Source of the DNA: Nitrospirota bacterium
GTDB taxonomy: Bacteria; Nitrospirota; Thermodesulfovibrionia; Thermodesulfovibrionales; SM23-35
DNA: 64,000 bases
Direction: 5' to 3'
Assembly (NCBI GenBank): GCA_049323875.1
Contig: JBMOLW010000030.1
Coordinates: 224,393 to 288,392 of the forward strand
Shown: positions 4,664 through 58,683 of the stretch, piece by piece
Layout: each line of letters opens with the position of its first letter
Numbering within the stretch: the first letter of the stretch is position 1
Position numbers and translations under genes: made by a program
The notes under the pieces: generated by a model
The model's database searches: none
What the model was told of the DNA's origin: nothing
Seen by the model: the letters and a program-made list of their open reading frames with translations, nothing else

Positions 4664-5134
4664 CTATTCCAGAGACCTGGTTATATAGGGGGTATAATCC
4701 TTCAGTACCGGTTCATATACCTCTTCAAGGAGCGGAGAAGATATCATAAAGTCTGCCGTCGAACGGTTGCATGCAGTCGGGATGTTATAGAGAACCGCTA
4801 TCCTGAGGAGCGCTTTTACATCCACATCATGGGGATGCGGCTGCATGGGGTCCCATAAAAAAATCAGGACATCAATTCCTCCCTCAGCGATCATGGCTCC
4901 CAGTTGCTGGTCTCCCCCCAGCGGACCGGACTTCAGTTTTGTGACGGCAAAAGTCTCCGTCTCGCCCTTCTCTTCCATTTTTTTCTGTATTGCTTCTTCA
5001 ACCAGTCTGCCCGTGGTCCCGGTGCATATCATGGGGTGGTTGATGAGTATGCGGTAATTCCATTCAACCCATTCGATCAGGTCCTTTTTCCGGTTATCAT
5101 GTGCTACAAGGGCAATTCTTTTCATTACTTCCAT
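4664..5134 (-). CDS. mgsA: Methylglyoxal synthase
   Basis: IALVAHDNRKKDLIEWV...CTGTTG...GPLGGDQQLGAMIAEGGIDVLIFLWDPMQPHPHDVDVKALLRIAVLYNIPTACNRSTADF matches the MgsA family throughout. AGGAGG lies 6 nt upstream of the ATG at 5134. Confidence 0.92.
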   Translation of the reverse strand: MEVMKRIALVAHDNRKKDLIEWVEWNYRILINHPMICTGTTGRLVEEAIQKKMEEKGETETFAVTKLKSGPLGGDQQLGAMIAEGGIDVLIFLWDPMQPHPHDVDVKALLRIAVLYNIPTACNRSTADFMISSPLLEEVYEPVLKDYTPYITRSLE

Positions 5135-5186
5135 GTGTTTCCTCCTTCTCTGGTGAACCTCCGACTCTCTTTGTGTCCTCAGAGCT

Positions 5187-5690
5187 TCATAGTCGCTCGA
5201 ACACCATCTCACTATCCCCGCCAAAAAGGTCTTTGTCTTTGAGATTTTCCCCGATGAATTCCGAGAGAGCCTCCGGAGTTTCCAGGTCCCTGTTATTCAT
5301 AAGCGTATCCTCCAGAATCCTTATGGTCAACCGGTTTCCGGCAATCGAATATCCTACGAAAAGCCAATGCCCCGCATCTCCTGACGGGCCGATTTCCTGA
5401 ACGTTCAGGAAATGCTCTCCCTGGATACAGGTAGCAAAAGCACGGTATGCAACAATTTTCCTGTTACCCTCAGGGCTCATGATAATGATTTCGTGATCGT
5501 TGAAGGGATATATTGAAAGTGTTGCAGCTTCAGTTTCTCCCGGAGCGCCGTATTTCCAGTTACCGATCAACTCCCGGTCAATCTGGGCTGTATCAGGAGA
5601 TGAAAGAGGAAACTCAGACTCATAGGGACAACCACAGAGCATGATACTGAAGACCACCAGTAAACCTGCTTTCAATACTTTCCTGTTCAT
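5187..5690 (-). CDS. Lipoprotein, unknown function
   Basis: Signal peptide with lipobox MNRKVLKAGLLVVFSIMLCGC. 167-aa ORF with no recognisable catalytic motif. Confidence 0.6.
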   Translation of the reverse strand: MNRKVLKAGLLVVFSIMLCGCPYESEFPLSSPDTAQIDRELIGNWKYGAPGETEAATLSIYPFNDHEIIIMSPEGNRKIVAYRAFATCIQGEHFLNVQEIGPSGDAGHWLFVGYSIAGNRLTIRILEDTLMNNRDLETPEALSEFIGENLKDKDLFGGDSEMVFERL

Positions 5691-45125: not shown

Positions 45126-45872
45126 ATGAGAAAAAGCCCGAAAGGAACCGTCATGATCCCCTTCTGTCTCATGGCAAAAACGATTTCTGACGCATGGTTT
45201 CAGCTTATCTATAACCTGTTTGATAAGGCCTACTCACAGAACATACAAAAAGGCTCCTTTGAGAACGAACAATACCGCCTCCAATATCCGGGGATCGCAG
45301 TTTATATTGAACATCCATATTACGACATCGTGCCGAGCATCCCGTCCGCCCTCGGTATCCCTGCTCCGACAACCATGGAATATATCGAAGATTACTTTGC
45401 GAATTACCTTATGAATCCCGAGCTTGCTGAAAACGAAACATACACATACGCAAGCAGGATACAATGCTCCATGCCGAACGGAGGCACCCAGCTTGACCGG
45501 GTTATCGTTATGCTGAAGGAAACTCCGCTGACAAACCAGGCAGTCGTCGAGATTGCAACTCCCCATGATCTCGATATCTGTTATGGAAAAGACGGCAAGC
45601 TCGATCCCCCCTGTCTCAGACTGATTGATTTCAAGGTCATCCCTTCGGGAGATTCGCTTTTGCTCACGGTAAGCGTCTACTTCAGGTCATGGGATTTATG
45701 GGCGGGTTTCCCGACAAACCTCGGCGGGATAGAACTCCTGAAGCAGTTCGTTGCTTCGGAAACGGAACTGAAGAACGGTCCCCTGTATGCCTACAGCGCA
45801 GGCGCCCACATTTACGGCTATCAGGAAGAGATCGCCCGTCTCAGAACGCTGAAATCGAATAAATCTGCATAA
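45126..45872 (+). CDS. Thymidylate-synthase-fold protein (short, archaeal-style ThyA-like)
   Basis: DPPCLRLIDFKV matches the catalytic P-C-(H) strand. YFRSWDLWAGFPTNLGG matches ThyA YQRS.D..LG.PFN. AGAHIYGYQ matches GD.HIY.NH. It starts 6 nt after the permease stop; alternative ATGs are at 45153 and 45171. Confidence 0.65.
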   Translation: MRKSPKGTVMIPFCLMAKTISDAWFQLIYNLFDKAYSQNIQKGSFENEQYRLQYPGIAVYIEHPYYDIVPSIPSALGIPAPTTMEYIEDYFANYLMNPELAENETYTYASRIQCSMPNGGTQLDRVIVMLKETPLTNQAVVEIATPHDLDICYGKDGKLDPPCLRLIDFKVIPSGDSLLLTVSVYFRSWDLWAGFPTNLGGIELLKQFVASETELKNGPLYAYSAGAHIYGYQEEIARLRTLKSNKSA

Positions 45873-46121: not shown

Positions 46122-47279
46122 CTACGACCCTTTGAGCGGCAGCCTGATAAGAAACGTTGTGCCTTTGCCCGGTTCGCTTTCGACAGAGATGTCCCCGTTA
46201 TGATACTGGACTATCTTCAACGCAAAGGTAAGTCCCAATCCCGGACTGTACATCTTTGAAGAGACCATGGGATCGAAGATATTCTTTATCTTGTCCTTTT
46301 CGATTCCTTTTCCGGTATCGGCGATCTGCACTCTCAGATTTTCTGTGCCGGTCCTCGTGCTGATCGTAAGATTTTTTTCTGTGGTCTCCATAGCCTCAAT
46401 CGCATTCCTGATCATGTTGCAGAGAGCCCTTTTCATAAGCTTTTTGTCGATCGGAAGGACAGGGAGCTCATTCTGGAGGTCTGTCTTTACCGTAATATTC
46501 TTTTCCGCAAACTCCTTTTCGAACACCTTGAGGGCATCAAGAACAATCTCATTGATGTCGACAGGCTCCTTCTGGGATATCTCCATGGATTTGAGTTCTA
46601 TGAGCTGCCTGATCATCTCTTCAAGCACTGCAACATCTTCTATGATCATCTGGAGATATTTTCTGTTCGGGTCATCTTTAGGAAGTTTCTGAAAGACCTT
46701 CCGCGCAAACCCGCCGATCGATGTCAGGGGGTTCCGTATCTCGTGCGCAACCTCGTCGATCATCTGTTCAAGGGCTCCGGTTTTCTCGGTCTCAACCTTC
46801 TTTTCATGGGTTGCCTTGATGGAGAGGAGGGAGCGTACCCTTGCGGAGAGTTCTTTATAGTCAAAGGGCTTCGCCATGTAATCATCGGCCCCCGTATCAA
46901 GCCCTTTTACCTTGTAGTCGATTTCCCCTTTTGCGGTGAGCATAAGGATGGGTATATATTTTGTCTTTTCGTCAGACTTCAGCCGTCTGCAGGTCTCGTA
47001 TCCATCCATCACCGGCATCATGACGTCAAGAACGATCAGGTCGGGGTTATATTCCGGGACTTTCCTGAGCCCTTCTTCGCCATTGGAGGCCTGGTCAGTG
47101 TCATATCCTTCGGCGCGGAATCTCTTCCTGAGCAGTTCGACGGTGTCAGGGGCGTCATCGACAATCAGTATCTTATTCTTCTTCTCTCCCAAGAACGCTT
47201 TCCCATTTTCCCCGAAGATAATTCCTGACCTGCTCAGGAAATTCCCGCACATTGATCGGTTTCGATATGTATCCTTCAA
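46122..47279 (-). CDS. Receiver-histidine kinase fusion (REC-HisKA-HATPase)
   Basis: REC domain (KILIVDDAPDTVELL...DLIVLDVMMPVMDG...LTAKG), H-box VAHEIRNPLTSIGGF, ATPase motifs NAIEAM, DTGKGI and GLGLTF. The true start is probably downstream of 47279 (ATG 47252 or TTG 47192), because the maximal ORF overlaps the upstream gene by 107 nt. Confidence 0.88.
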   Translation of the reverse strand: MKDTYRNRSMCGNFLSRSGIIFGENGKAFLGEKKNKILIVDDAPDTVELLRKRFRAEGYDTDQASNGEEGLRKVPEYNPDLIVLDVMMPVMDGYETCRRLKSDEKTKYIPILMLTAKGEIDYKVKGLDTGADDYMAKPFDYKELSARVRSLLSIKATHEKKVETEKTGALEQMIDEVAHEIRNPLTSIGGFARKVFQKLPKDDPNRKYLQMIIEDVAVLEEMIRQLIELKSMEISQKEPVDINEIVLDALKVFEKEFAEKNITVKTDLQNELPVLPIDKKLMKRALCNMIRNAIEAMETTEKNLTISTRTGTENLRVQIADTGKGIEKDKIKNIFDPMVSSKMYSPGLGLTFALKIVQYHNGDISVESEPGKGTTFLIRLPLKGS

Positions 47280-47595
47280 ACCCGCCGCTGATGAACTTTT
47301 CCCTGTCGCCTTTCATCGCGTGGGCAGTCAGTGCAACAATAGGAATCTCCCTGAATTCTTCCATGGTTTTGAGCCGCTTAACGACTTCAAAGCCGTCTAT
47401 TTTCGGAATCGATATATCCATGAGGATGAGGTTCGGTTTTTCAGTGAGCGCTTTCTGAATAGCCTCTTCACCGTCCTGAGCCTCAATCATCTGATAGCCT
47501 TTATTTTTCAGGACTTTCACCACAAGCTCACGGCTGTCCTGATTATCCTCTACAACGAGGATAGTCCGCGGGATTATCTTCTTGTTCTCGTCCAT
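47173..47595 (-). CDS. Single-domain CheY-like response regulator
   Basis: ILVVEDNQDSRELVVKVL, phospho-acceptor context LILMDISIPKIDG, and VALTAHAMKGD. 140 aa with no output domain. Confidence 0.9.
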   Translation of the reverse strand: MDENKKIIPRTILVVEDNQDSRELVVKVLKNKGYQMIEAQDGEEAIQKALTEKPNLILMDISIPKIDGFEVVKRLKTMEEFREIPIVALTAHAMKGDREKFISGGFEGYISKPINVREFPEQVRNYLRGKWESVLGREEE

Positions 47596-47641
47596 GCCGT
47601 CCTATCCGATCTGCATCCTATTATATCCGGCCTCCGAATTT

Positions 47642-50347
47642 TTATGCTGTTGTATTCAGTTTACTGATCGTATTTTTCATTTCAGTGAGAAAATCTTCCC
47701 GGGTAAGGACCCCCCTATTGAGTATCCCCTGAATCCTCCCGTTCAGTTCATCGATCTCTTGTTCGGTAAGGTCTTTATGGGTCACAATAATGACCGGGAT
47801 ATCTTTCAGGCTGTCTTCTGTTTTCAGATATTCAACGACGTCAAAGCCCACATCCGGAGCGGTAGGATTGAGCACAATAAGATCAGGCTTGAAATCCTTT
47901 ATAGAATGCTTTGCGTCGTCGCTGTTATACGCAGTGGTTACCTGGTATTCAACTTCCCGGAGGACTCCGCCTATCATCCTTACTGTTTCCGGTTCATTAT
48001 CAACCACAAGCACCCTCTTGATCTTCTTCATTTTCTCGAGATTGGTAAGCTTGTGGAGGAGTGTCTCCTTCTCTACGGGCTTTATCAGATATTCGGCAGC
48101 GCCGAGGCTGAACCCCAATTTCGTATCGTCCACGATAGAGAGTATGATCACGGGGATATCCTGGGTCTCCGGGGTATTTTTCAGCTCCTGGAGCACCTGC
48201 CACCCGTTTTTCCGCGGCATCATGATATCAAGGGTTATCGCGAGAGGCAGGATTTCCTTGGCTTTTTCGACAGCACCCTCTCCACTGAGGAGGCCTACAA
48301 CCCGGTAATCATCTCCCAGGTATTTCTCGATTATCTCTATCGCTTCCGGGTTGTCGTCTATGGCGAGAATCACTTTTTTTCCGTCACCGCCCTGCGTCGT
48401 CTGCGGGGAAACGAGTTTCTCTTTTTCCTCATCACAGAGGATAAGTCCCTTGATGAGCTCGCATCCCTTGCAAAAGTCAACCTTTTCAGGATAGGCTGCG
48501 AGCTTCATCCCTGCGCAATGGGTTCCGAGGATCATCCAGCACCGGCTTTCCTTGCTTCCGTACGCAGGGCAACTCGGCTGACCACAGCGGACATATTCCC
48601 AGCACCGGATCGGCTTCCCTGCATATTCCGGCTCTCTGAGGAGGGCTTCGGTCGGGACTCCAAAATACTCGGCAAGCCCCTGCGCCATTCGCTTTTCAAC
48701 GACAGGCTGCTCGGGCTTATCGAGAACCTCCTTTTTAAACGGGATGGTGAAACAGAACCTGCTTCCTTCTCCGTATTTGCTCGTTACCCATATGAATCCC
48801 TTATGCAGCGATATCAGCCCCCGCGCAATACTCAGGCCAAGCCCGGTACCTTCATACTGCCTCACCGTAGTGAGGTCCACCTGGACAAACTTGTCGAAAA
48901 TCTTCCCGATATCCTCTTCCTTGATCCCTATGCCGGTATCTTCAACGCAGATTTCTGCGAATATCGGATCTTCTCCGGGTGCGATGCCACGTTCTGAAAT
49001 CTTTGCCCTGATCGTAATCCCTCCCTTGTGGGTAAATTTTATCGCATTCGATACCAGATTGATAAGTACCTGTTTAATTTTATCTTCATCGGCATAGAGC
49101 AAAGGAAGTCCTTCCCCGATATCATAGGAAAGATTCAGGTTCTTTTGTTTGATTTGAGGTTCAAAGGTCGGCATGACCGATTCGACAAGCCATCTGAAAT
49201 CTATCTCTTTCGGCGACAGTTTCATTTTCCCCGATTCAATCTTCGAGATATCGAGGACATCATTGATCAACTGGAGAAGATGCCGGGCATTCGCAGCAAC
49301 CTTCCTCAGGCTCTTTTCCTGTTCCTCATTCACCGGGCCGTCGACCTCATCCATCAGGAGATCGGTATATCCGATAATCGCGTTCATGGGCGTCCGGAGT
49401 TCATGGGACATGTTTGCGAGAAAAGTCGATTTCAGTTTATCAAGCTCTCTCAGTTCCCTGTTTGCCACTTCAAGCAGGGAAAGGAGCCTCGTCCTCTCGT
49501 TTAAGAGCGAGGTCTTCCTCTTCACCTCCTCCTCCAACGCCTTGCTCGTTGAAGATATCCTTCCAACCATCTCATTAAAGGTGTTCCCGAGGATACCGAT
49601 TTCATCCTCTGTTCTCACCTCGACGGTAACCGACATATCGCCTTCAGCGAATCTTTCTGCCTTCTCCGCCAGGCTTTCTACCGGTTGTCTCACGAGGCGG
49701 TTTACCATGAAGTAGACAAGAACAATGGAGAAGGGAATCAGGAACATCACGATCATGATGGTCCGGTTGCGCTGAGCAACGACTTGTGCGTATGTGCGCT
49801 CTGCATCGATTCTGACCACGATGCCGCCGAGGACTTTCCGCGAAGACCCGTGGCAGTGATAACAGTTCTCTTCATTCAGGATCGGACGCATAACGACAAG
49901 ATGTCTCTTCCCTCCCATAAGGTCTTCGAAAGGTTTGCGGGTATCAACCGGTGGGGTAATCCCGGTATTGAGGGTTTCAGCAAGGGTATCAAGAACCTCG
50001 TTATTCCGGATATGTTCTTTCAGTCCGGAACTGACCGATCTCTCATGGGTCGAGTAGACAATCTCCTGCTCAAAATCGCAGATGAAAACTTCCACGTCCT
50101 GCATCTTTTCCCGGATATCTGCCAGCTCTCTTACAATCGCCTCTTTGTCCCCGACTTCCATGGGGTATTTTATGCCTGCATAGACCGCGTCAGCCAGTTC
50201 AGTGCTCATCGCCGAGGCAATCTCAAGCCTGTCCTGCGTGCCGAAGTATATCCTCATATATATTTCTGCGATCAGCACCAACAGAATTATAACGAGCATT
50301 GCCACCATGATCTTATAGCCCAGTCTTTTCTTTATGAAACTTAGCAT
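47642..50347 (-). CDS. Hybrid sensor histidine kinase: periplasmic CxxCH-containing sensor, HAMP, HisKA, HATPase, Cys-rich insert, two receiver domains
   Basis: TM1 is IMVAMLVIILLVLIAEIY. The roughly 170-aa periplasmic domain ends in NCYHCHG. TM2 and a HAMP domain follow. The H-box is ANMSHELRTPMNAIIGY and the ATPase motifs are DTGIGI and GTGLGLSI. A Cys-rich segment follows (CWEYVRCGQPSCPAY...CWMILGTHCAG...CKGC...C). Two REC domains close the protein (VILAIDDNPE... and VLVVDNEPE...). Confidence 0.9.
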   Translation of the reverse strand: MLSFIKKRLGYKIMVAMLVIILLVLIAEIYMRIYFGTQDRLEIASAMSTELADAVYAGIKYPMEVGDKEAIVRELADIREKMQDVEVFICDFEQEIVYSTHERSVSSGLKEHIRNNEVLDTLAETLNTGITPPVDTRKPFEDLMGGKRHLVVMRPILNEENCYHCHGSSRKVLGGIVVRIDAERTYAQVVAQRNRTIMIVMFLIPFSIVLVYFMVNRLVRQPVESLAEKAERFAEGDMSVTVEVRTEDEIGILGNTFNEMVGRISSTSKALEEEVKRKTSLLNERTRLLSLLEVANRELRELDKLKSTFLANMSHELRTPMNAIIGYTDLLMDEVDGPVNEEQEKSLRKVAANARHLLQLINDVLDISKIESGKMKLSPKEIDFRWLVESVMPTFEPQIKQKNLNLSYDIGEGLPLLYADEDKIKQVLINLVSNAIKFTHKGGITIRAKISERGIAPGEDPIFAEICVEDTGIGIKEEDIGKIFDKFVQVDLTTVRQYEGTGLGLSIARGLISLHKGFIWVTSKYGEGSRFCFTIPFKKEVLDKPEQPVVEKRMAQGLAEYFGVPTEALLREPEYAGKPIRCWEYVRCGQPSCPAYGSKESRCWMILGTHCAGMKLAAYPEKVDFCKGCELIKGLILCDEEKEKLVSPQTTQGGDGKKVILAIDDNPEAIEIIEKYLGDDYRVVGLLSGEGAVEKAKEILPLAITLDIMMPRKNGWQVLQELKNTPETQDIPVIILSIVDDTKLGFSLGAAEYLIKPVEKETLLHKLTNLEKMKKIKRVLVVDNEPETVRMIGGVLREVEYQVTTAYNSDDAKHSIKDFKPDLIVLNPTAPDVGFDVVEYLKTEDSLKDIPVIIVTHKDLTEQEIDELNGRIQGILNRGVLTREDFLTEMKNTISKLNTTA

Positions 50348-50395
50348 AGTCTGCAGTCTTTCGTTATGCCGGCAGTTCTCTCCTCGCTGCGGGTA

Positions 50396-50911
50396 TCAGT
50401 GAGCACCCCCGTGAATCAGCGGCTTGTATCTAAACGCCTTCACCCGTTCCTCAGTATGACACACCTCACAGTCCGCGATGCTTAAACGCCTCTTGATATA
50501 CTGCGGACTCCTTGTCTTCACATGGAGCTCTCCGGGACCATGGCAGACCTCGCACCCGGCATTCTTCAGATGGGGTGTTTTTTCAACGCTCACAAACCCC
50601 CCGGGCTTTCCGTACCCGGTAGTATGACATGCGTAACACCCCCGTATTTCCTCCTCAGTCAATCCTTTCTTCACCCGATCAATACTGTTGTAAGATTTAC
50701 TCTTCTTGGCATATTTCATAAAACTGTCGTATTCCTTTTCATGACATTTTTGACAGACATCAGACCCAACATATACCGGGGGACCTTTCTTTGCCTGCGC
50801 ATAACTATGTCCGGGCTCTGCAACGGAAAATACCAGGAGAAGCAGGTGGAACCACGCAAGGAAAAATATGGAGGATGGTCTCATAATACTCATATTTTCT
50901 TGTATTGCCAA
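50396..50911 (-). CDS. Tetrahaem c-type cytochrome (c554-like small multihaem family), secreted
   Basis: Four CxxCH motifs: CQKCH, CYACH, CEVCH and CEVCH. Hydrophobic signal sequence IFFLAWFHLLLLVFSVAEPGHSYA. The start may be an internal ATG at 50893 or 50884. Confidence 0.85.
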   Translation of the reverse strand: MAIQENMSIMRPSSIFFLAWFHLLLLVFSVAEPGHSYAQAKKGPPVYVGSDVCQKCHEKEYDSFMKYAKKSKSYNSIDRVKKGLTEEEIRGCYACHTTGYGKPGGFVSVEKTPHLKNAGCEVCHGPGELHVKTRSPQYIKRRLSIADCEVCHTEERVKAFRYKPLIHGGAH

Positions 50912-50956: not shown

Positions 50957-51727
50957 ATGGCATATACCATCGCTGTTGCCGGGAAAGGCGGTACAGGGAA
51001 AACGACCCTCGCAGGCCTTACTGTCCGCTACCTGATCGAACAGAGAAAAAAACCTGTCCTTGCAGTCGACGCAGATCCGAACAATTGTCTGAACGAAGCC
51101 CTTGGAGTTCCAGTCCATGCGACGGTTGGAAAGCTGAGAGAAGATTCACTCCGGATCATCAGGAACGGTTCAGAAAGGCCCGGGAGCATGTCAATGGAGC
51201 AGCTTTTTGACTACAGGATACAACAGTCAATCATTGAATCAAAAGGTTTTGACCTGCTCGTCATGGGAAGACCCGAGGGGCCCGGCTGTTATTGCGCTGC
51301 AAACAATATTATCAGAAAATACACCGACAAGCTCTCAGAAACGTATCCCTATGTAGTTATTGATAACGAGGCGGGCATGGAGCACCTGAGCAGAAGGACT
51401 ACTCACCGGGTAAACCTGCTGATGATCGCAAGTGATCCTGGCATGCGAGGATTAGAGACCGCGAAAAGGATAAACGCCCTCGTCTCCGAACTTGAGCTGG
51501 ACATTGAGAACCGTGTGCTCCTCATCAACAGAATTTCCCTCCCCGAAGAATTCTCGCTGCAGAAGACGGCAGCGTGCCTGGGTCTCCGGGTTGGCGGAAT
51601 CGTGCCTCACGACGATGCCCTGTTCCAAATCGGCCTCAAGGGAGAGTCGGTTTTTCATCTCCCTGACGATGCAAAAGCACTCAGGTCTCTGTTCTCAATC
51701 CTTGATGCCCTGAATATTCCGTCCTGA
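50957..51727 (+). CDS. cooC: CooC/AcsF-type MinD-family ATPase (Ni-insertion accessory protein family)
   Basis: MAYTIAVAGKGGTGKTT is a deviant Walker A. LAVDADPN, the CxC metal motif GPGCYCAANN, and VVIDNEAGMEHL are present. The listed ORF from 50522 is an antisense read-through extension over the cytochrome gene. Confidence 0.8.
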   Translation: MAYTIAVAGKGGTGKTTLAGLTVRYLIEQRKKPVLAVDADPNNCLNEALGVPVHATVGKLREDSLRIIRNGSERPGSMSMEQLFDYRIQQSIIESKGFDLLVMGRPEGPGCYCAANNIIRKYTDKLSETYPYVVIDNEAGMEHLSRRTTHRVNLLMIASDPGMRGLETAKRINALVSELELDIENRVLLINRISLPEEFSLQKTAACLGLRVGGIVPHDDALFQIGLKGESVFHLPDDAKALRSLFSILDALNIPS

Positions 51728-54085: not shown

Positions 54086-55052
54086 GATTATTTCCACTGG
54101 TTCGTTTCTTCCGGAAAAAGTCCTCACCAATCATGACCTTGAAAAAATGGTGGACACATCCGATAAATGGATCACCGAGAGAACAGGAATCAAGGAAAGG
54201 CGGATATCCGGTCCCGGTCAGGCAGCATCTGATCTCGCCTATGAGGCGTCACGGATTGCCCTTGAGAGAGCCGGAATCGGCGCCGGAGAAGTGAATGCAA
54301 TTATCGTCGGCACAATATCCGGTGACATGCCCTTCCCTTCAACTGCCTGCTTTCTGCAGGATAAGCTCGGGGCATCAAATGCCGTCGCCTTTGATGTCAA
54401 TGCCGCCTGTTCCGGTTTTCTCTATGCCCTCTATATTGCGGACAGTTTCATCAAATCCGGTCTCCAGGAAAAGATACTCGTGGTCGGCACCGAAATACTT
54501 TCACAGATAACCGACTGGGAAGACAGGACAACCTGTGTTCTCTTCGGTGACGGCGCGGGAGCCGTTCTCGTCGGTCCTTCTCAGGACGACCGGGGCTTGC
54601 TCTCGGTTCATATTCACTCTGACGGATCAATGTGGGACCTTATTTCAGTTCCCGGCGGAGGGTCACGCAATCCGGTTTCCCCTGATTCGATCAAACAGAG
54701 GCTTCACTATATCAAGATGAAAGGCAATGAAACGTTCAAGGTCGCGGTAAGGACTCTTGAGGAAATTGCCCTCACAACCCTTTCCCGGAACGGATTGGAC
54801 TCTTCGGATCTTTCACTGCTCATACCGCATCAGGCGAACCAGAGGATCATTCAGGCTACGGCAGACAGACTGAAGCTGCCGAAAGACAAAGTTGTGATGA
54901 ACCTTGAAAAGTACGGAAATACCTCTGCGGCTTCCATCCCGATAGCACTCGACGAAGCAGTCCGGACAGGAAGAATACAGGAGGGAGACTATATTCTGCT
55001 CGAAGCGTTCGGGGGCGGACTTACCTGGGCTTCCGCTCTAATAAAGTGGTGA
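54072..55052 (+). CDS. fabH: 3-oxoacyl-ACP synthase III
   Basis: GTG start. Active-site Cys in NAACSGFLYAL, His in IPHQANQRI, Asn in YGNTSAASIP. 326 aa. Confidence 0.95.
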   Translation: MQRSRIISTGSFLPEKVLTNHDLEKMVDTSDKWITERTGIKERRISGPGQAASDLAYEASRIALERAGIGAGEVNAIIVGTISGDMPFPSTACFLQDKLGASNAVAFDVNAACSGFLYALYIADSFIKSGLQEKILVVGTEILSQITDWEDRTTCVLFGDGAGAVLVGPSQDDRGLLSVHIHSDGSMWDLISVPGGGSRNPVSPDSIKQRLHYIKMKGNETFKVAVRTLEEIALTTLSRNGLDSSDLSLLIPHQANQRIIQATADRLKLPKDKVVMNLEKYGNTSAASIPIALDEAVRTGRIQEGDYILLEAFGGGLTWASALIKW

Positions 55053-57188
55053 TTTTCTTACCCCTGTGTCAAGGAGTCGCCTAACCGCAGACAGCAACTC
55101 TTTACCCTGGAACGGTTTTCTGATAAAGGCATCGACCAGATTCTCCTTGCTGAGCGAAGCATTGGTGTACCCTGAGATACCGATAATTCTGATCCCCGGT
55201 TTTATCTTTTTCAGGTTTTTTATCAGTTCGTCCCCTTCCATGAGCGGCATCATGATATCCGTAATCACAAGCTGAACAGTCCCGCTATTTTCCCTGAACA
55301 TATCGATTGCGTTGAGAGAGTTGTTGACCGGCATAACCTGGTACCCATGGTTTACCAGGATCTCTTTTACAAAATTGAGCACGTCCACATCGTCGTCAAC
55401 AACCATGATGTTCTCATTACCCTGCATGGAGGTACTCGCAGGCTTCGCGATACCCGCAAGAATTTTTTCAGACGCGGGGAAATAGATCACAAAAGTCGAT
55501 CCCTTGCCTGGTTCACTCTCGACGGAGATATATCCCTTGTGGTCCTTGACGATTCCGTACACCGTCGCAAGGCCCAGCCCCGTCCCCTTGCCCTTTTCCT
55601 TGGTAGTAAAAAAAGGGTCAAAAATCTTGTTCATAATCTGTGCAGGAATTCCGCTCCCGGTATCCGATACCGTCATCACAATATATTTGCCAGGTACTAT
55701 GTAAGTCGGAGTATCGTACCGTTCCCTTCCGATATCAGCCATCTCGGTTCGGATGGTAATAAGGCCGCCATCGGGCATTGCATCCCGTGCGTTCACCATA
55801 AGGTTCATGAGCACCTGTTCGACCTGGTTGGGATCACCCTCAAAGTTCTGAGAGGTGCTGCTCAATTCAAGTTTGATCCCTATCCTTTTGTCCAGCACCC
55901 CTTCGAAAAGCCGAACTGAGTCATTAATAATGTCATGAAGGTTCAGCGGGAGAACCTCATGGGTTTCCCTTCTCGCGAAACTGAGGAGTTTCGATACCAT
56001 CACCCCCGCCTTCCTTGCCGAGCTCTCGATATTCCTTACCCTCAGCTTTGAAGTTTCGTCCAGTTCGCTGAATTCCAGGAGCAGTTCCGAATACCCGAGG
56101 ATGGTGGTCAGGATGTTGTTGAAGTTATGGGCAATGCCGCCCGCGAGCGCTCCGACGGAATCCATTTTCTGTGAATGCATAAGCTGCTCCCGGATCCGCT
56201 TCTTTTCCGTAATATCGCGGTAGAAAGACTGGATGAAAAGTTCTCCTCCTATCTCTATCGCCTTTGCACTGACTTCAAGGTCTACCTTTTCCCCTTCCCT
56301 CCTGTAATGTTCTGTCTCATAGATTATTGATTCACCGTGCAGAATCCGCTCCCTCCGGTCGTCAATCTGTTTCTTATCGCCTCGTGCCTCGAGTAATTCA
56401 ATATTCACTCCTACGAGAGCATCTTTCTCAAACCCATGGATCTCGCAGGCCTTTTTGTTCACATTTACGATCGTTCCGTTCCTGTCCTGCACGATAATAC
56501 CGTCGGTAGCGTTATCGAAGACGGACTTGTGCCATTTCTCAGAGATGGCGAGTTCTTTGGTACGTTCCTGAACGAGGTCTTCGAGCTGGGTAGAATATTT
56601 TTCAAGCTGTGCTTTCTGTTGATCGAGGTCATATTGAAGTCCGACCTCGCTTACTAATCTTTGGTGATGCAGGTATCTTAAGAGGATAAGGGAAAACATT
56701 ACGGATAAGATAAAAATATTCGCATTAATAAAATAAGAGGGATTCGTGATTGTATCATAAAAAAGTATTGGCAGAAGAAATATTGCGTACATTATGGCAG
56801 AAGCTACGATACTCATAATTACGCTCACCGGGATAAGTCCTATAACGTAGACAACAGATAACATAATGCCTGCAAAATAAGGGGATTGATGTCCTCCTAT
56901 CTTGGCTATCATCAAGGCTACCATAGTACACACAGATATCGCAGCCAAGATAGTCACAACATTCTGTCTGTTCCTGTCAACTTTTTGTTTATTGTACAAA
57001 TAGATCAAAAAGATGGAGCCTGCGGCAAAGATGCGATATATTAAAAAAATTTCAAAGTTAGACGGGGTTACAAAATAATCGAGGATGATAAGAGAAAGAA
57101 TAACAAGGGAACCTATTTTTGTTGCAATATTGGACCAATGATAGAGAAGGATGTCCAGATTTGATCGAATGTATTCTTCTTTTGTCAT
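55038..57188 (-). CDS. Hybrid sensor histidine kinase: polytopic membrane sensor, PAS, HisKA, HATPase, C-terminal receiver
   Basis: About 6 TM helices in the first 190 aa, then a coiled coil. PAS domain (FDNATDGIIVQDRNGTIVNVN...), H-box GGIAHNFNNILTTILGY, ATPase motifs NARDAM, DTGSGI and GTGLGLATV, and a REC domain (IMVVDDDVDVL...VITDIMMPLMEG). Confidence 0.9.
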   Translation of the reverse strand: MTKEEYIRSNLDILLYHWSNIATKIGSLVILSLIILDYFVTPSNFEIFLIYRIFAAGSIFLIYLYNKQKVDRNRQNVVTILAAISVCTMVALMIAKIGGHQSPYFAGIMLSVVYVIGLIPVSVIMSIVASAIMYAIFLLPILFYDTITNPSYFINANIFILSVMFSLILLRYLHHQRLVSEVGLQYDLDQQKAQLEKYSTQLEDLVQERTKELAISEKWHKSVFDNATDGIIVQDRNGTIVNVNKKACEIHGFEKDALVGVNIELLEARGDKKQIDDRRERILHGESIIYETEHYRREGEKVDLEVSAKAIEIGGELFIQSFYRDITEKKRIREQLMHSQKMDSVGALAGGIAHNFNNILTTILGYSELLLEFSELDETSKLRVRNIESSARKAGVMVSKLLSFARRETHEVLPLNLHDIINDSVRLFEGVLDKRIGIKLELSSTSQNFEGDPNQVEQVLMNLMVNARDAMPDGGLITIRTEMADIGRERYDTPTYIVPGKYIVMTVSDTGSGIPAQIMNKIFDPFFTTKEKGKGTGLGLATVYGIVKDHKGYISVESEPGKGSTFVIYFPASEKILAGIAKPASTSMQGNENIMVVDDDVDVLNFVKEILVNHGYQVMPVNNSLNAIDMFRENSGTVQLVITDIMMPLMEGDELIKNLKKIKPGIRIIGISGYTNASLSKENLVDAFIRKPFQGKELLSAVRRLLDTGVRKSPLY

Positions 57189-57270
57189 TGAGGTTTTGTC
57201 CGTTTTGACTTTATAATCAATAATATAACATTTGCCTGAACGCTACAATAGTATTCTTTTTGGCTGAATA

Positions 57271-58683
57271 TCATTTCATTTTTTCTTTTCTCAATATCCT
57301 TTTGGCTGTATCATGTCCCGAATAACATGTTCCCGGCATGCCGAATGCGATGCTTGTCCAGTGACCGGTGAGATACAAACCACGAATACCAGTCGTTTTG
57401 CTGAAAAGTGCATCATAAGTCTGCGATGTCGTCTTTGCCCAACCAAAAGCCGCACCTTGAGAATTAAGAGTATATCGATATAACGTGTGAGGGGTAGCTG
57501 CATCAAAATAAACAATATTCTCCCTGATATTCGGAAACAAAGTTTCAATTCTGTTCAAAAAATTATCAGCCACTTTCTTTTTATTTTCTTTCCAGAACAA
57601 TTTATTCATAAAAGGAGCACCGACAAATGCTAATAAGGTTTTCTGGTCGGGAGATACCCTGAACATATACATACCGGCCTTGCCGAAATTGCACTGCTGT
57701 ATTTGGCTATAGATTTCATCCAGATCGTAATGCGGAAGATACCATGTGTTTGTGCCAGGAGGCGGAAGTCCCGCAAATGGTTTATTGATGCCAATATAGA
57801 GAATGAACGTTGATATCGAAGGAACCATATTTTTCAGACTTTCAATTCTCTGTTTGTCAGGGATTGTCTCCCTTAATAAACGAGTATACGTTTGATTCAT
57901 ATCACATGCTGATATGACATATTTGGAACTGAGTGTTACATTGTTTTCCAATTTTACTCCTACTACTGAATCGTGGGTAACAAGAATTTCGTTTACAAGA
58001 GTCCGGTAGAGAATCTTCCCGTGGTTCTCTTTGATAATATAATCGAATGCATTAGGCATATTTTGTATGCCGCCTTCCGGATAGTACCCACCATCAATAA
58101 TAAATTCACTAAATATTTTTGAACCGCTGAATGCATGCATGAGAGATGGCGGTAACCCTCCATTACCAAATACCGGGATAGCAAATGAACTTATCAGTTT
58201 TTCGTCCCGAAAAAAAGACCTCAGCAAGGATTCGAATGTCTTGCTCTTCAATGTACTAAACTGCGCTTGATTTGAGGACATGAGGAAATCAAAGAACTTT
58301 TTGAGATTATCTTTCTCCTGAGGGAACAGCGTTGCCAGTCCAGCCAATGTAGTATCCTTGTCATTCCAAAAGGTCATTGTAAAATCTGGGGCGATTATAA
58401 TGTCAGAGGGATCAAAGCGTTCAATTTTGATTATTTTATCAACTCCCAATTCTGTGAATATTTTATAGACATGTCCACCCTCTCGATAGTTACCGAAAGA
58501 ATGTGCTGCAGAATCGAACAGGAATCCCTTCCTCTTGAAGGAGGTAAAATAGCCTCCTGGTTTATCATGCTGCTCTACGATCAGTACTTTCATGCCCGCT
58601 TTTGCCAGATAGCACCCGCACACAAGGCCGCTTATTCCAGCGCCTATGATAATGGCGTCGTACGTAGTTTGAGATTTTGTCAT
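57271..58683 (-). CDS. CrtI/phytoene-desaturase-like FAD-dependent oxidoreductase
   Basis: N-terminal dinucleotide fold YDAIIIGAGISGLVCGCYLAKAGMKVLIVEQHDKPGG. 470 aa, and the C-terminal LYLTGHWT matches the family. Its ATG abuts the ACP stop with a 0-nt gap. Confidence 0.8.
   Translation of the reverse strand: MTKSQTTYDAIIIGAGISGLVCGCYLAKAGMKVLIVEQHDKPGGYFTSFKRKGFLFDSAAHSFGNYREGGHVYKIFTELGVDKIIKIERFDPSDIIIAPDFTMTFWNDKDTTLAGLATLFPQEKDNLKKFFDFLMSSNQAQFSTLKSKTFESLLRSFFRDEKLISSFAIPVFGNGGLPPSLMHAFSGSKIFSEFIIDGGYYPEGGIQNMPNAFDYIIKENHGKILYRTLVNEILVTHDSVVGVKLENNVTLSSKYVISACDMNQTYTRLLRETIPDKQRIESLKNMVPSISTFILYIGINKPFAGLPPPGTNTWYLPHYDLDEIYSQIQQCNFGKAGMYMFRVSPDQKTLLAFVGAPFMNKLFWKENKKKVADNFLNRIETLFPNIRENIVYFDAATPHTLYRYTLNSQGAAFGWAKTTSQTYDALFSKTTGIRGLYLTGHWTSIAFGMPGTCYSGHDTAKRILRKEKMK

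Follow-up and report, generated by a model that had tools for sequence, protein, structure and literature searches.

Gene content and conservation of the operon

The signalling genes described here lie on a 64,000-nucleotide (nt) stretch of contig JBMOLW010000030.1 from a Nitrospirota bacterium (Thermodesulfovibrionales). This whole stretch is called the window, and positions refer to it unless a related locus is named. Four open reading frames (ORFs) were found within 46122-50911, all on the minus strand and all where an earlier note on this DNA had placed them, and they are one conserved signalling operon with the following products, whose lengths are given in amino acids (aa).

50396-50911, minus strand: secreted tetrahaem c-type cytochrome, cytochrome c554-like; longest ORF, 171 codons from TTG 50911
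47642-50347, minus strand: hybrid sensor histidine kinase, 901 aa; transmembrane (TM) segment, haem-c Cache domain, TM segment, HAMP, HisKA, HATPase, two-CW, receiver (REC) and pseudo-REC
47173-47595, minus strand: CheY-like stand-alone receiver, 140 aa (D60, T and K present); AGGA 5 nt before the ATG
46122-47192, minus strand: REC-HisKA-HATPase kinase (REC-kinase), 356 aa from TTG 47192; longest ORF starts at 47279

The association of the cytochrome gene with the receptor gene extended well beyond the window. When one genome from each GTDB species was searched with a profile of the sensor domain, at least 547 relatives were obtained, of which the best 80 loci were kept. These were mostly from metagenome-assembled genomes of Thermodesulfovibrionales and other Nitrospirota (identity up to 80%), and the remainder were from Desulfobacterales, Syntrophobacteraceae, Desulfobulbales, Seep-SRB2-type and other Desulfobacterota, including the isolate Desulfoferrobacter suflitae DRH4. 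Of the 74 loci with enough upstream sequence, 73 have a cytochrome gene directly upstream and on the same strand, the product of which is 53-85% identical to the window cytochrome; in the sole exception (L081), the cytochrome precedes a first sensor kinase of the same cluster. The full order of cytochrome, two-CW hybrid kinase, CheY-like protein and REC-kinase was kept in 51 of the 60 loci that could be assessed on both sides. Genes on either side (for a CbiA-like ATPase, a ThyA-like protein and an ABC transporter) recur within Nitrospirota only, and thus the four genes stay together where the synteny around them has been lost.

The same linkage was detected when the search was reversed. Metagenome contigs scanned with a cytochrome profile contained 36 loci at least about 39% identical to the cytochrome, of which 33 could be assessed downstream. 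About 31 of these 33 had a sensor-like receptor with one CxxCH motif on the same strand, the start of which lies 410-650 nt downstream of that of the cytochrome. Of ten such receptors that were scanned, nine are methyl-accepting chemotaxis proteins with an Mcp40H-20-type sensor and the tenth is a 272-aa sensor-HAMP protein. The clade of small c554-like cytochromes is tied to a haem-c sensor whatever the output of the receptor, which argues that the cytochrome is part of the input rather than a regulated product. The earlier note had named a lack of cytochrome-kinase linkage in other genomes as grounds for refutation, and in both scans the linkage of the cytochrome to a receptor was strongly conserved.

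Synteny was read from genome and metagenome loci because protein searches with the sensor or the two-CW segment gave short or fragmentary proteins. Two close loci in long-read assemblies of the European Nucleotide Archive (L001 and L002) have apparent frameshifts that split the kinase into several called genes, which explains the short 'HAMP domain-containing' search results as fragments of full-length kinases. As independent evidence of linkage, these two frameshifted assemblies were uninformative and were set aside.

The spacing of the genes was short and conserved. The cytochrome and kinase ORFs are separated by 48 nt and the kinase and CheY-like ORFs by 46 nt, as previously noted; the ORF positions given earlier also stand, and it is the likely start codons of two genes that were moved. 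The cytochrome likely starts at ATG 50884 rather than at TTG 50911, since the former gives a protein of 162 aa, the modal length of the homologues, with a plausible signal peptide (MRPSS...SYA/QA). The REC-kinase likely starts at TTG 47192 rather than at 47279, since this gives 356 aa, as in the homologues, and a purine-rich GGGAAAG lies 6 nt upstream. From this start the REC-kinase gene overlaps the CheY-like gene by 20 nt. The median intergenic distances in 60 related loci were 47, 16 and -20 nt, which fits a single transcription unit. A sigma70-like match at 50911-50883 was rejected as a chance match because it overlaps the likely start codon and because promoter and terminator counts were not above those of shuffled sequences.

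The tetrahaem cytochrome and the haem-c sensor domain

The cytochrome has a predicted signal peptide and four haem-binding motifs.

50798-50884, minus strand: predicted Sec signal peptide (MRPSSIFFLAWFHLLLLVFSVAEPGHSYA, followed by QA), from reading of the sequence
50741-50755, minus strand: haem-binding motif 1, CQKCH, invariant in 75 of 75 sequences
50624-50638, minus strand: haem-binding motif 2, CYACH, aligned with a CxxCH motif of c554
50540-50554, minus strand: haem-binding motif 3, CEVCH inside the conserved GCEVCHGPG, from alignment with homologues and c554
50456-50470, minus strand: haem-binding motif 4, CEVCH, from alignment with homologues

The N-termini of the homologues are variable and hydrophobic and are followed by a conserved mature part that begins at YVGS. 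Pfam family Cytochrome_C554 (PF13435) matched the cytochrome with 72.1 bits (cut-off, 20.8; E, 7.8e-20), and the sequence match in the PDB was cytochrome c554 of Nitrosomonas europaea (1bvb; E, 6e-8). The score with the CycA orthologue model NF043010 was 29.1 bits against an equivalog cut-off of 400, so by this model the protein is not an orthologue of CycA. Exactly four CxxCH motifs were present in 74 of 74 homologues, and this constancy, together with a gene order kept across two phyla, argues that the module is not a chance finding. Among the other histidines, H130 and the C-terminal H171 are invariant, H167 is present in 70 and H114 in 59 of 75 sequences, and about 80% of the cytochromes thus have as many candidate distal histidines as haems, four of each. 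Conservation is higher in the cytochrome than in the sensor domain, and every haem motif is invariant.

Tetrahaem units 30-45% identical to the cytochrome form the C-terminal part of proteins of 380-900 aa (L119-L162; for example, L120 669-2114, L136 2-2386 and L159 4143-6884), and below about 40% identity such proteins were found without a neighbouring sensor gene. A Pfam scan of the remainder of these proteins gave no recognisable domain. The best NCBIfam match of the cytochrome was to the C-terminus of an UshA-like (seleno)protein (NF041198). The presence of the module at the end of larger periplasmic proteins is typical of electron-transfer modules and points to an electron-transfer character for the cytochrome. 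In homologues from Desulfobulbales (L072 7406-7921), the alignment showed a lipobox-like VLGC in the signal peptide, and some members of the family may, judging from this motif, be lipoproteins rather than soluble proteins.

The periplasmic part of the hybrid kinase lies between two TM segments.

50252-50314, minus strand: TM1, hydrophobic segment, aa 12-32
49763-50251, minus strand: periplasmic haem-c sensor domain, sCache_heme/Mcp40H-20_sensor type, from profile, model and Foldseek
50159-50161, minus strand: Met63 in the motif KYPMxVGD, candidate distal haem ligand, invariant in 59 of 59 kinases
49850-49864, minus strand: putative haem-attachment motif CYHCH (C162, C165 and H166; aa 162-166), between two hydrophobic helices
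49700-49762, minus strand: TM2, hydrophobic segment, aa 196-216

Several lines of evidence place this domain in the known family of haem-c Cache/PAS-like sensors that includes GSU0582, GSU0935 and sCache_heme. The isolated N-terminal 218 residues matched PF21563 (Mcp40H-20_sensor) with 30.4 bits and the whole protein with 26.0 bits (cut-off, 27), a match that spans just profile positions 67-107; the match to PF11845 (Tll0287-like) was weak (22.1 bits; cut-off, 24.1). A profile made from 18 homologous sensor fragments matched the Geobacter haem-c sensors 3b42 (E, 1e-6) and 3b47 (E, 9e-5). The AlphaFold2 (AF2) model of the sensor, with a predicted local distance difference test score (pLDDT) of 82, has a long N-terminal helix and a five-stranded sheet, with the CxxCH motif in a short helix (160-166) between strands 147-157 and 172-181. 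Long helices (2-65 and 183-217) flank the domain and put it in an extracytoplasmic position between the two TM segments. Foldseek against the PDB ranked 3b42 first (E, 4.7e-7), followed by the single-Cache domains of WalK, DctB and CitA; sequence identity to 3b42 was about 23-35%. C162, C165 and H166 were invariant in 59 of 59 kinases and in 18 of 18 sensor fragments.

The haem-c sensor family was described by Londer (2006) and Pokkuluri (2008), as cited in later work. The sCache_heme family joins GSU0582 and GSU0935 with DUF3365/Tll0287, is enriched in Nitrospirota and Desulfobacterota, is fused to kinases, methyl-accepting chemotaxis proteins (MCPs) and cyclases, and has its CxxCH in a short helix inserted ahead of the final beta-strands; of cytochrome links, that study mentions just fusions to cytochrome-c-like domains in Flavobacteria (PMC12889525). 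The haem of GSU0935 is ligated axially by Met60 and His144, and the methionine binds the reduced haem and leaves upon oxidation; the two Geobacter sensors have midpoint potentials of -156 and -251 mV (PMC8396549). By analogy with Met60 of GSU0935, Met63 is likely the distal ligand in the window kinase.

Two-CW domain, kinase cores and receivers

The cytoplasmic parts of the two kinases have the domains listed below.

49553-49705, minus strand: HAMP domain of the hybrid kinase (Pfam, 1.5e-12)
49229-49432, minus strand: HisKA (DHp) of the hybrid kinase, phospho-acceptor H315 in SHELRTP (Pfam, 3.5e-22; motif invariant in 59 of 59)
48734-49090, minus strand: HATPase_c catalytic domain of the hybrid kinase (Pfam, 4.3e-27)
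48443-48616, minus strand: two-CW domain between the kinase core and REC1; seven invariant Cys (C582, C588, C593, C603, C611, C626 and C629) and two CW dipeptides
48047-48370, minus strand: REC1, canonical receiver (DD664-665, D707, S737 and K756), from Pfam and alignment; D707 invariant
47663-48013, minus strand: REC2, pseudo-receiver; N827 at the phospho-Asp, N784 at the second acidic and R878 at the Lys position
46833-47171, minus strand: REC of the REC-kinase
46581-46772, minus strand: HisKA of the REC-kinase
46131-46448, minus strand: HATPase of the REC-kinase

The cysteine-rich insert mentioned in the earlier note is real and is probably a two-CW domain. It matched NF045718 (two-CW, NCBIfam) with 27.3 bits (E, 3.5e-6), under the curated cut-off of 35; all seven cysteines and both CW dipeptides are kept, with the spacing of typical two-CW domains, and the cysteines were invariant in 59 of 59 kinases. 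A phmmer search with the 66-residue segment gave 600 representative proteins at E<=1e-3 from a library of 1.84 billion, most of them signalling proteins, with the consensus KCWExxxCxxxxCPAYxSxxxRCWxxxGTHC...EKxExCxxC. Among 96 representatives that were scanned, HATPase_c was present in 49, PAS in about 41, GGDEF in 8, MCPsignal in 5 and a haem-c sensor in 5. The domain was N-terminal in 88 of 155 occurrences, unlike in the window kinase, where it follows the catalytic domain and precedes the receivers, and many proteins of 63-120 aa consist of the two-CW domain alone. Pfam had no family for it, the PDB had no sequence relative at E<=10, and no paper on it was found in the literature. An AF2 model (pLDDT, 59.5) was too poor for a fold search.

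A HisKA domain with a conserved histidine, an HATPase_c domain and a fused phosphorylatable receiver make the 901-aa protein a hybrid kinase (Pfam; SHELRTP and D707 invariant). An exact look-up gave no record of its sequence. The two receivers reported earlier correspond to two Response_reg matches, but the second is non-phosphorylatable: its acceptor position was Asn in 48 and Ser in 11 of the 59 aligned kinases and never Asp, and REC2 is therefore a conserved pseudo-receiver. When the receivers were aligned to Escherichia coli CheY, the residues for phosphorylation (Asp at the position of CheY D57, an acidic pair, Thr/Ser and Lys) were present in REC1, in the CheY-like protein and in the REC of the REC-kinase; REC2 has N827, N784 and R878 instead. 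The kinase core of the REC-kinase is AtoS/ZraS/NtrB-like (AtoS, 3.4e-59; ZraS, 7e-46).

No histidine-containing phosphotransfer (Hpt) domain was detected in any of the four proteins among family matches at E<=0.1, and so a classical His-Asp-His-Asp phosphorelay is not encoded. NCBIfam equivalog models for BarA, TorS and ArcB scored far under their cut-offs. Of the branched or multi-step phosphorelay suggested by the earlier note, the branching stands and the classical multi-step relay does not. The arrangement is better called a branched multi-kinase network, in which the sensor kinase would feed REC1, the CheY-like protein and the REC of an NtrB/AtoS-like kinase. Domain scans of the four proteins gave no DNA-binding output, in agreement with what had been noted before.

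The architecture around the cytochrome varied among the related loci. In about 15 Nitrospirota loci, one more kinase, of about 540 aa, is encoded after the hybrid kinase and before the CheY-like protein (for example, L004 10715-12331); it is absent from the window, its N-terminal half has multiple TM segments and no haem motif, and its core is 55-74% identical to that of the hybrid kinase. Some Desulfobacterales kinases are without either receiver, and a gene for an additional, cytoplasmic two-CW kinase comes after theirs. In Desulfobulbales loci the cytochrome is followed by a 549-aa simple sensor kinase with a core like that of the REC-kinase (NtrB-like), and a divergent 453-aa REC-Sigma54_activat-HTH_8 regulator adjoins this kinase. 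Two loci (L114 5314-8185 and L116 5335-8109) encode a cytochrome, a 272-aa receptor with haem sensor and HAMP only and then a kinase with haem sensor and two-CW domain, and thus have two haem receptors behind one cytochrome. A second, deeper paralogous pair was found in L068 and L070 (cytochrome 38-40% and sensor 22-31% identical), where the receptor is a sensor-HAMP-two-CW-HisKA-HATPase protein; here the two-CW domain lies between HAMP and HisKA, unlike in the window kinase. This pair indicates that cytochrome, haem sensor and two-CW domain recur together in another arrangement. In L090 (JABAOH010000356.1; cytochrome at 4971-5471), the gene order is CbiA-like, cytochrome, ThyA-like, and the hybrid kinase, CheY-like protein and REC-kinase are absent; this locus looks like a natural deletion variant.

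A CbiA/ParA-like P-loop ATPase gene (50957-51727, plus strand) is divergent from the cytochrome gene, with about 46-73 nt between the start codons, and adjoins the module in 34 loci, every one from Nitrospirota. A thymidylate-synthase-like (ThyA-like) gene (45126-45872, plus strand; Pfam, just 48 bits) is convergent with the REC-kinase gene and adjoins the module in 29 Nitrospirota loci. The spacer between these two convergent genes has two hairpins, neither of which is followed by a T-run on the minus strand. The recurrence of the CbiA-like and ThyA-like genes was considered as a functional clue and gave none, and revealed no nearby output regulator. About 4 kb from the module is a second hybrid histidine kinase gene (55038-57188, minus strand; PAS-HisKA-HATPase-REC, 716 aa), which is syntenic in close relatives only and lies outside the conserved four-gene unit. 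G+C content dips to 0.41 at 56001-58000, against about 0.49 elsewhere in the window, over the 5' part of this kinase gene and an amine-oxidase-like gene.

Proposed mechanism, alternatives and known systems

We favour, with moderate confidence, the view that the module is a periplasmic redox-sensing pair, a tetrahaem relay with a haem-c receptor, that drives an Hpt-less multi-kinase network with no DNA-binding output in cis. The soluble c554-like cytochrome would equilibrate with the periplasmic electron-transfer pool and swap electrons with the single c-haem of the kinase Cache sensor. The change in redox state of the sensor haem would switch Met63 on or off as distal ligand, as in GSU0582 and GSU0935, and this switch would be passed through TM2 and the HAMP domain to the kinase core. 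The cytoplasmic two-CW domain would probably add an intracellular redox or metal input or gate phosphotransfer. Once autophosphorylated on H315, the hybrid kinase could donate phosphate to REC1 (D707), to the CheY-like protein (D60) or to the REC of the REC-kinase, with REC1 and the CheY-like protein acting as a competing sink or branch and REC2 probably serving as a docking or dimerisation module. The REC-kinase would then relay to a regulator encoded elsewhere, plausibly a sigma54-dependent activator of the NtrC type. AtoS/ZraS/NtrB-type kinases classically pair with sigma54-dependent regulators; the AtoS/ZraS/NtrB-like core and the Desulfobulbales version, which adjoins such a regulator, both suggest this route.

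A number of observations weigh against the redox-sensing pair. Electron exchange between cytochrome and sensor is something we infer from genetic linkage alone, and that linkage has exceptions: two close cytochrome loci (L090 and L104) are without a receptor, and at least one receptor subgroup pairs with Ser/Thr kinases instead. A companion preprint to the sCache_heme study describes Ser/Thr kinases adjoining HAMP-only receptors. More distant haem-c receptors fall outside the view given by the best 80 of at least 547 sensor matches, and the linkage rule may not cover all haem-c receptors. The candidate distal ligand H114 is replaced in about 20% of the cytochrome homologues, so that one haem may be five-coordinate and bind ligands. 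For the poorly modelled two-CW domain, a metal or Fe-S cofactor is guesswork. Neither an output regulator nor a regulon was found: the other large ORFs scanned in the window encode no sigma54 activator and no DNA-binding response regulator, and there was no sigma54 promoter 5' of the cytochrome in the window or in the 74 loci. In addition, a signalling-fused member of the sCache_heme family acts as a nitric oxide (NO) sensor (PMC12889525, a 2026 preprint).

The main alternative follows from the last of these points. The sensor haem might bind NO, carbon monoxide (CO), sulfide or a similar small ligand by displacing its distal ligand, and the cytochrome would be a scavenger, a reductase or the reductant that resets the haem to a ferrous, ligand-competent state. 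We regard this as unlikely. The cytochrome is c554-like, c554 of N. europaea has one five-coordinate haem and a reported NO-reductase activity, and H114 is not conserved in every homologue; against this, about four-fifths of the cytochromes have a candidate distal histidine for each haem, and larger proteins unrelated to one another have the tetrahaem module fused to them, as is usual for electron-transfer modules. For the sensor, NO and CO displace Met60 in GSU0582 and GSU0935 (PMC8396549) and NO-sensor properties were shown by signalling-fused sCache_heme domains (PMC12889525), but the invariant Met63 fits the redox-switch type and not the P. azotoformans type, and the hosts are strict anaerobes of sulfate-reducing lineages, not denitrifiers.

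It is quite improbable that the cytochrome, in its apo or holo form, serves as a protein ligand that reports haem or cytochrome maturation or abundance rather than electrons, in a feedback like that of TorC and TorS. The precedent is the binding of apo-TorC to the TorS sensor in E. coli, and such feedback would also fit a cytochrome that is closely linked to the sensor domain with any kind of output. An invariant CxxCH and a candidate methionine ligand would be needless in a purely protein-binding sensor, and a cytochrome conserved beyond the sensor, with all its haem motifs invariant, points to a working holo-cytochrome. Least probable is that the cytochrome is co-transcribed cargo, a target or a syntenic bystander of a kinase that senses something else, since, apart from L090, which keeps the cytochrome without the kinases, the linkage outlasts the loss of all flanking synteny across two phyla, holds for chemoreceptors without transcriptional output and conserves the directly upstream position with its short gap.

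A broader form of the redox-sensing pair can be put forward as a tentative idea that we think rather doubtful. The c554-like wire and the haem-c Cache receptor might make up a portable two-protein 'electron-flux sensor', an obligate input cassette, of which the kinase version, with the seven-Cys two-CW domain as a cytoplasmic metallodomain, would compare periplasmic and cytoplasmic redox states. If so, evolution would have joined this cassette to several kinds of protein in sulfate-reducing and syntrophic anaerobes, namely hybrid kinases, NtrB-like kinases, HAMP-only receptors and chemoreceptors; many haem-c Cache receptors would then read redox or energy status from the respiratory chain, not gases; and the kinase version would compare both compartments before committing phosphate to the branched Hpt-less network.

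Periplasmic sensors with haem c date from 2006-2008 and were recently generalised as sCache_heme, and whether their in vivo signal is redox potential or NO is debated. A dedicated tetrahaem cytochrome that is genetically inseparable from one large receptor clade, whatever the output, is a concrete and testable clue, which suggests that in the cell these receptors get their signal as electrons from the periplasmic redox network. Among the carriers are sulfate reducers, syntrophs and Seep-SRB2-type partners of methane-oxidising archaea, in which periplasmic multihaem networks are core to energy metabolism, and such a pair would give them a direct route by which electron flow in respiration controls gene expression and taxis. 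In addition, the module provides a defined setting for the study of the seven-Cys two-CW domain and the conserved pseudo-receiver. The receptor type is already known; the obligatory upstream cytochrome partner appears undescribed, and our literature search found no paper describing a cytochrome gene adjoining haem-c receptors, their association with two-CW or the conserved pseudo-receiver.

Comparison with known systems shows partial likenesses to several of them. RedCDEF of Myxococcus xanthus, a 'four-component' system, combines one membrane kinase with another kinase-like protein and several receivers that have no output domain, and has neither Hpt nor haem input; compared by description, it resembles the window module in being encoded together and in lacking Hpt, and the domain orders differ. 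In the TorS/TorT/TorC system of E. coli, a hybrid kinase is modulated by a periplasmic partner and the multihaem cytochrome TorC. The likeness, in that these partners act on the periplasmic domain of the kinase, is one of analogy and not of sequence: TorS is without haem, has an Hpt domain and a cognate DNA-binding regulator (TorR), TorC is a regulated product rather than a dedicated small partner, and the NCBIfam models of TorS, far under their cut-offs here, cover only the kinase core.

H-NOX/HnoK and NosP/NahK are analogous in gene order, with a stand-alone haemoprotein gene directly upstream of an often hybrid kinase, the haemoprotein being part of the input, and with branched multi-receiver phosphotransfer to stand-alone receivers. 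They are not sequence relatives, and the near_NosP_CTERM model gave 150 bits against a cut-off of 400 and matched the kinase core only. The accessory proteins of those systems are cytoplasmic haem-b gas sensors, their kinases are haem-free and NahK signals via the Hpt protein HptB, whereas here both partners are periplasmic c-haem proteins, the accessory protein has four haems and no Hpt was detected. With a c-type tetrahaem cytochrome as its upstream protein, the window module is not of the H-NOX/NosP type. The cytochrome itself is closest to cytochrome c554 (CycA, 1bvb), which is also tetrahaem and with which haem motifs 2 and 3, including GCExCHGPG, align. It has 211 aa, against about 125 aa for the mature protein here, and its partner is hydroxylamine oxidoreductase, whereas that of the window cytochrome is a signalling receptor.

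GSU0582 and GSU0935 (3b42 and 3b47) are the nearest counterparts of the receptor. They share with the window sensor the single-Cache/PAS-like fold between two TM segments with a HAMP domain after it, the single CxxCH, in a short helix that precedes the final strands, and a conserved methionine about 100 residues upstream as candidate distal ligand. The output differs, an MCP there and a hybrid kinase with two-CW domain and pseudo-receiver here, and in the window a dedicated tetrahaem cytochrome gene precedes the receptor.

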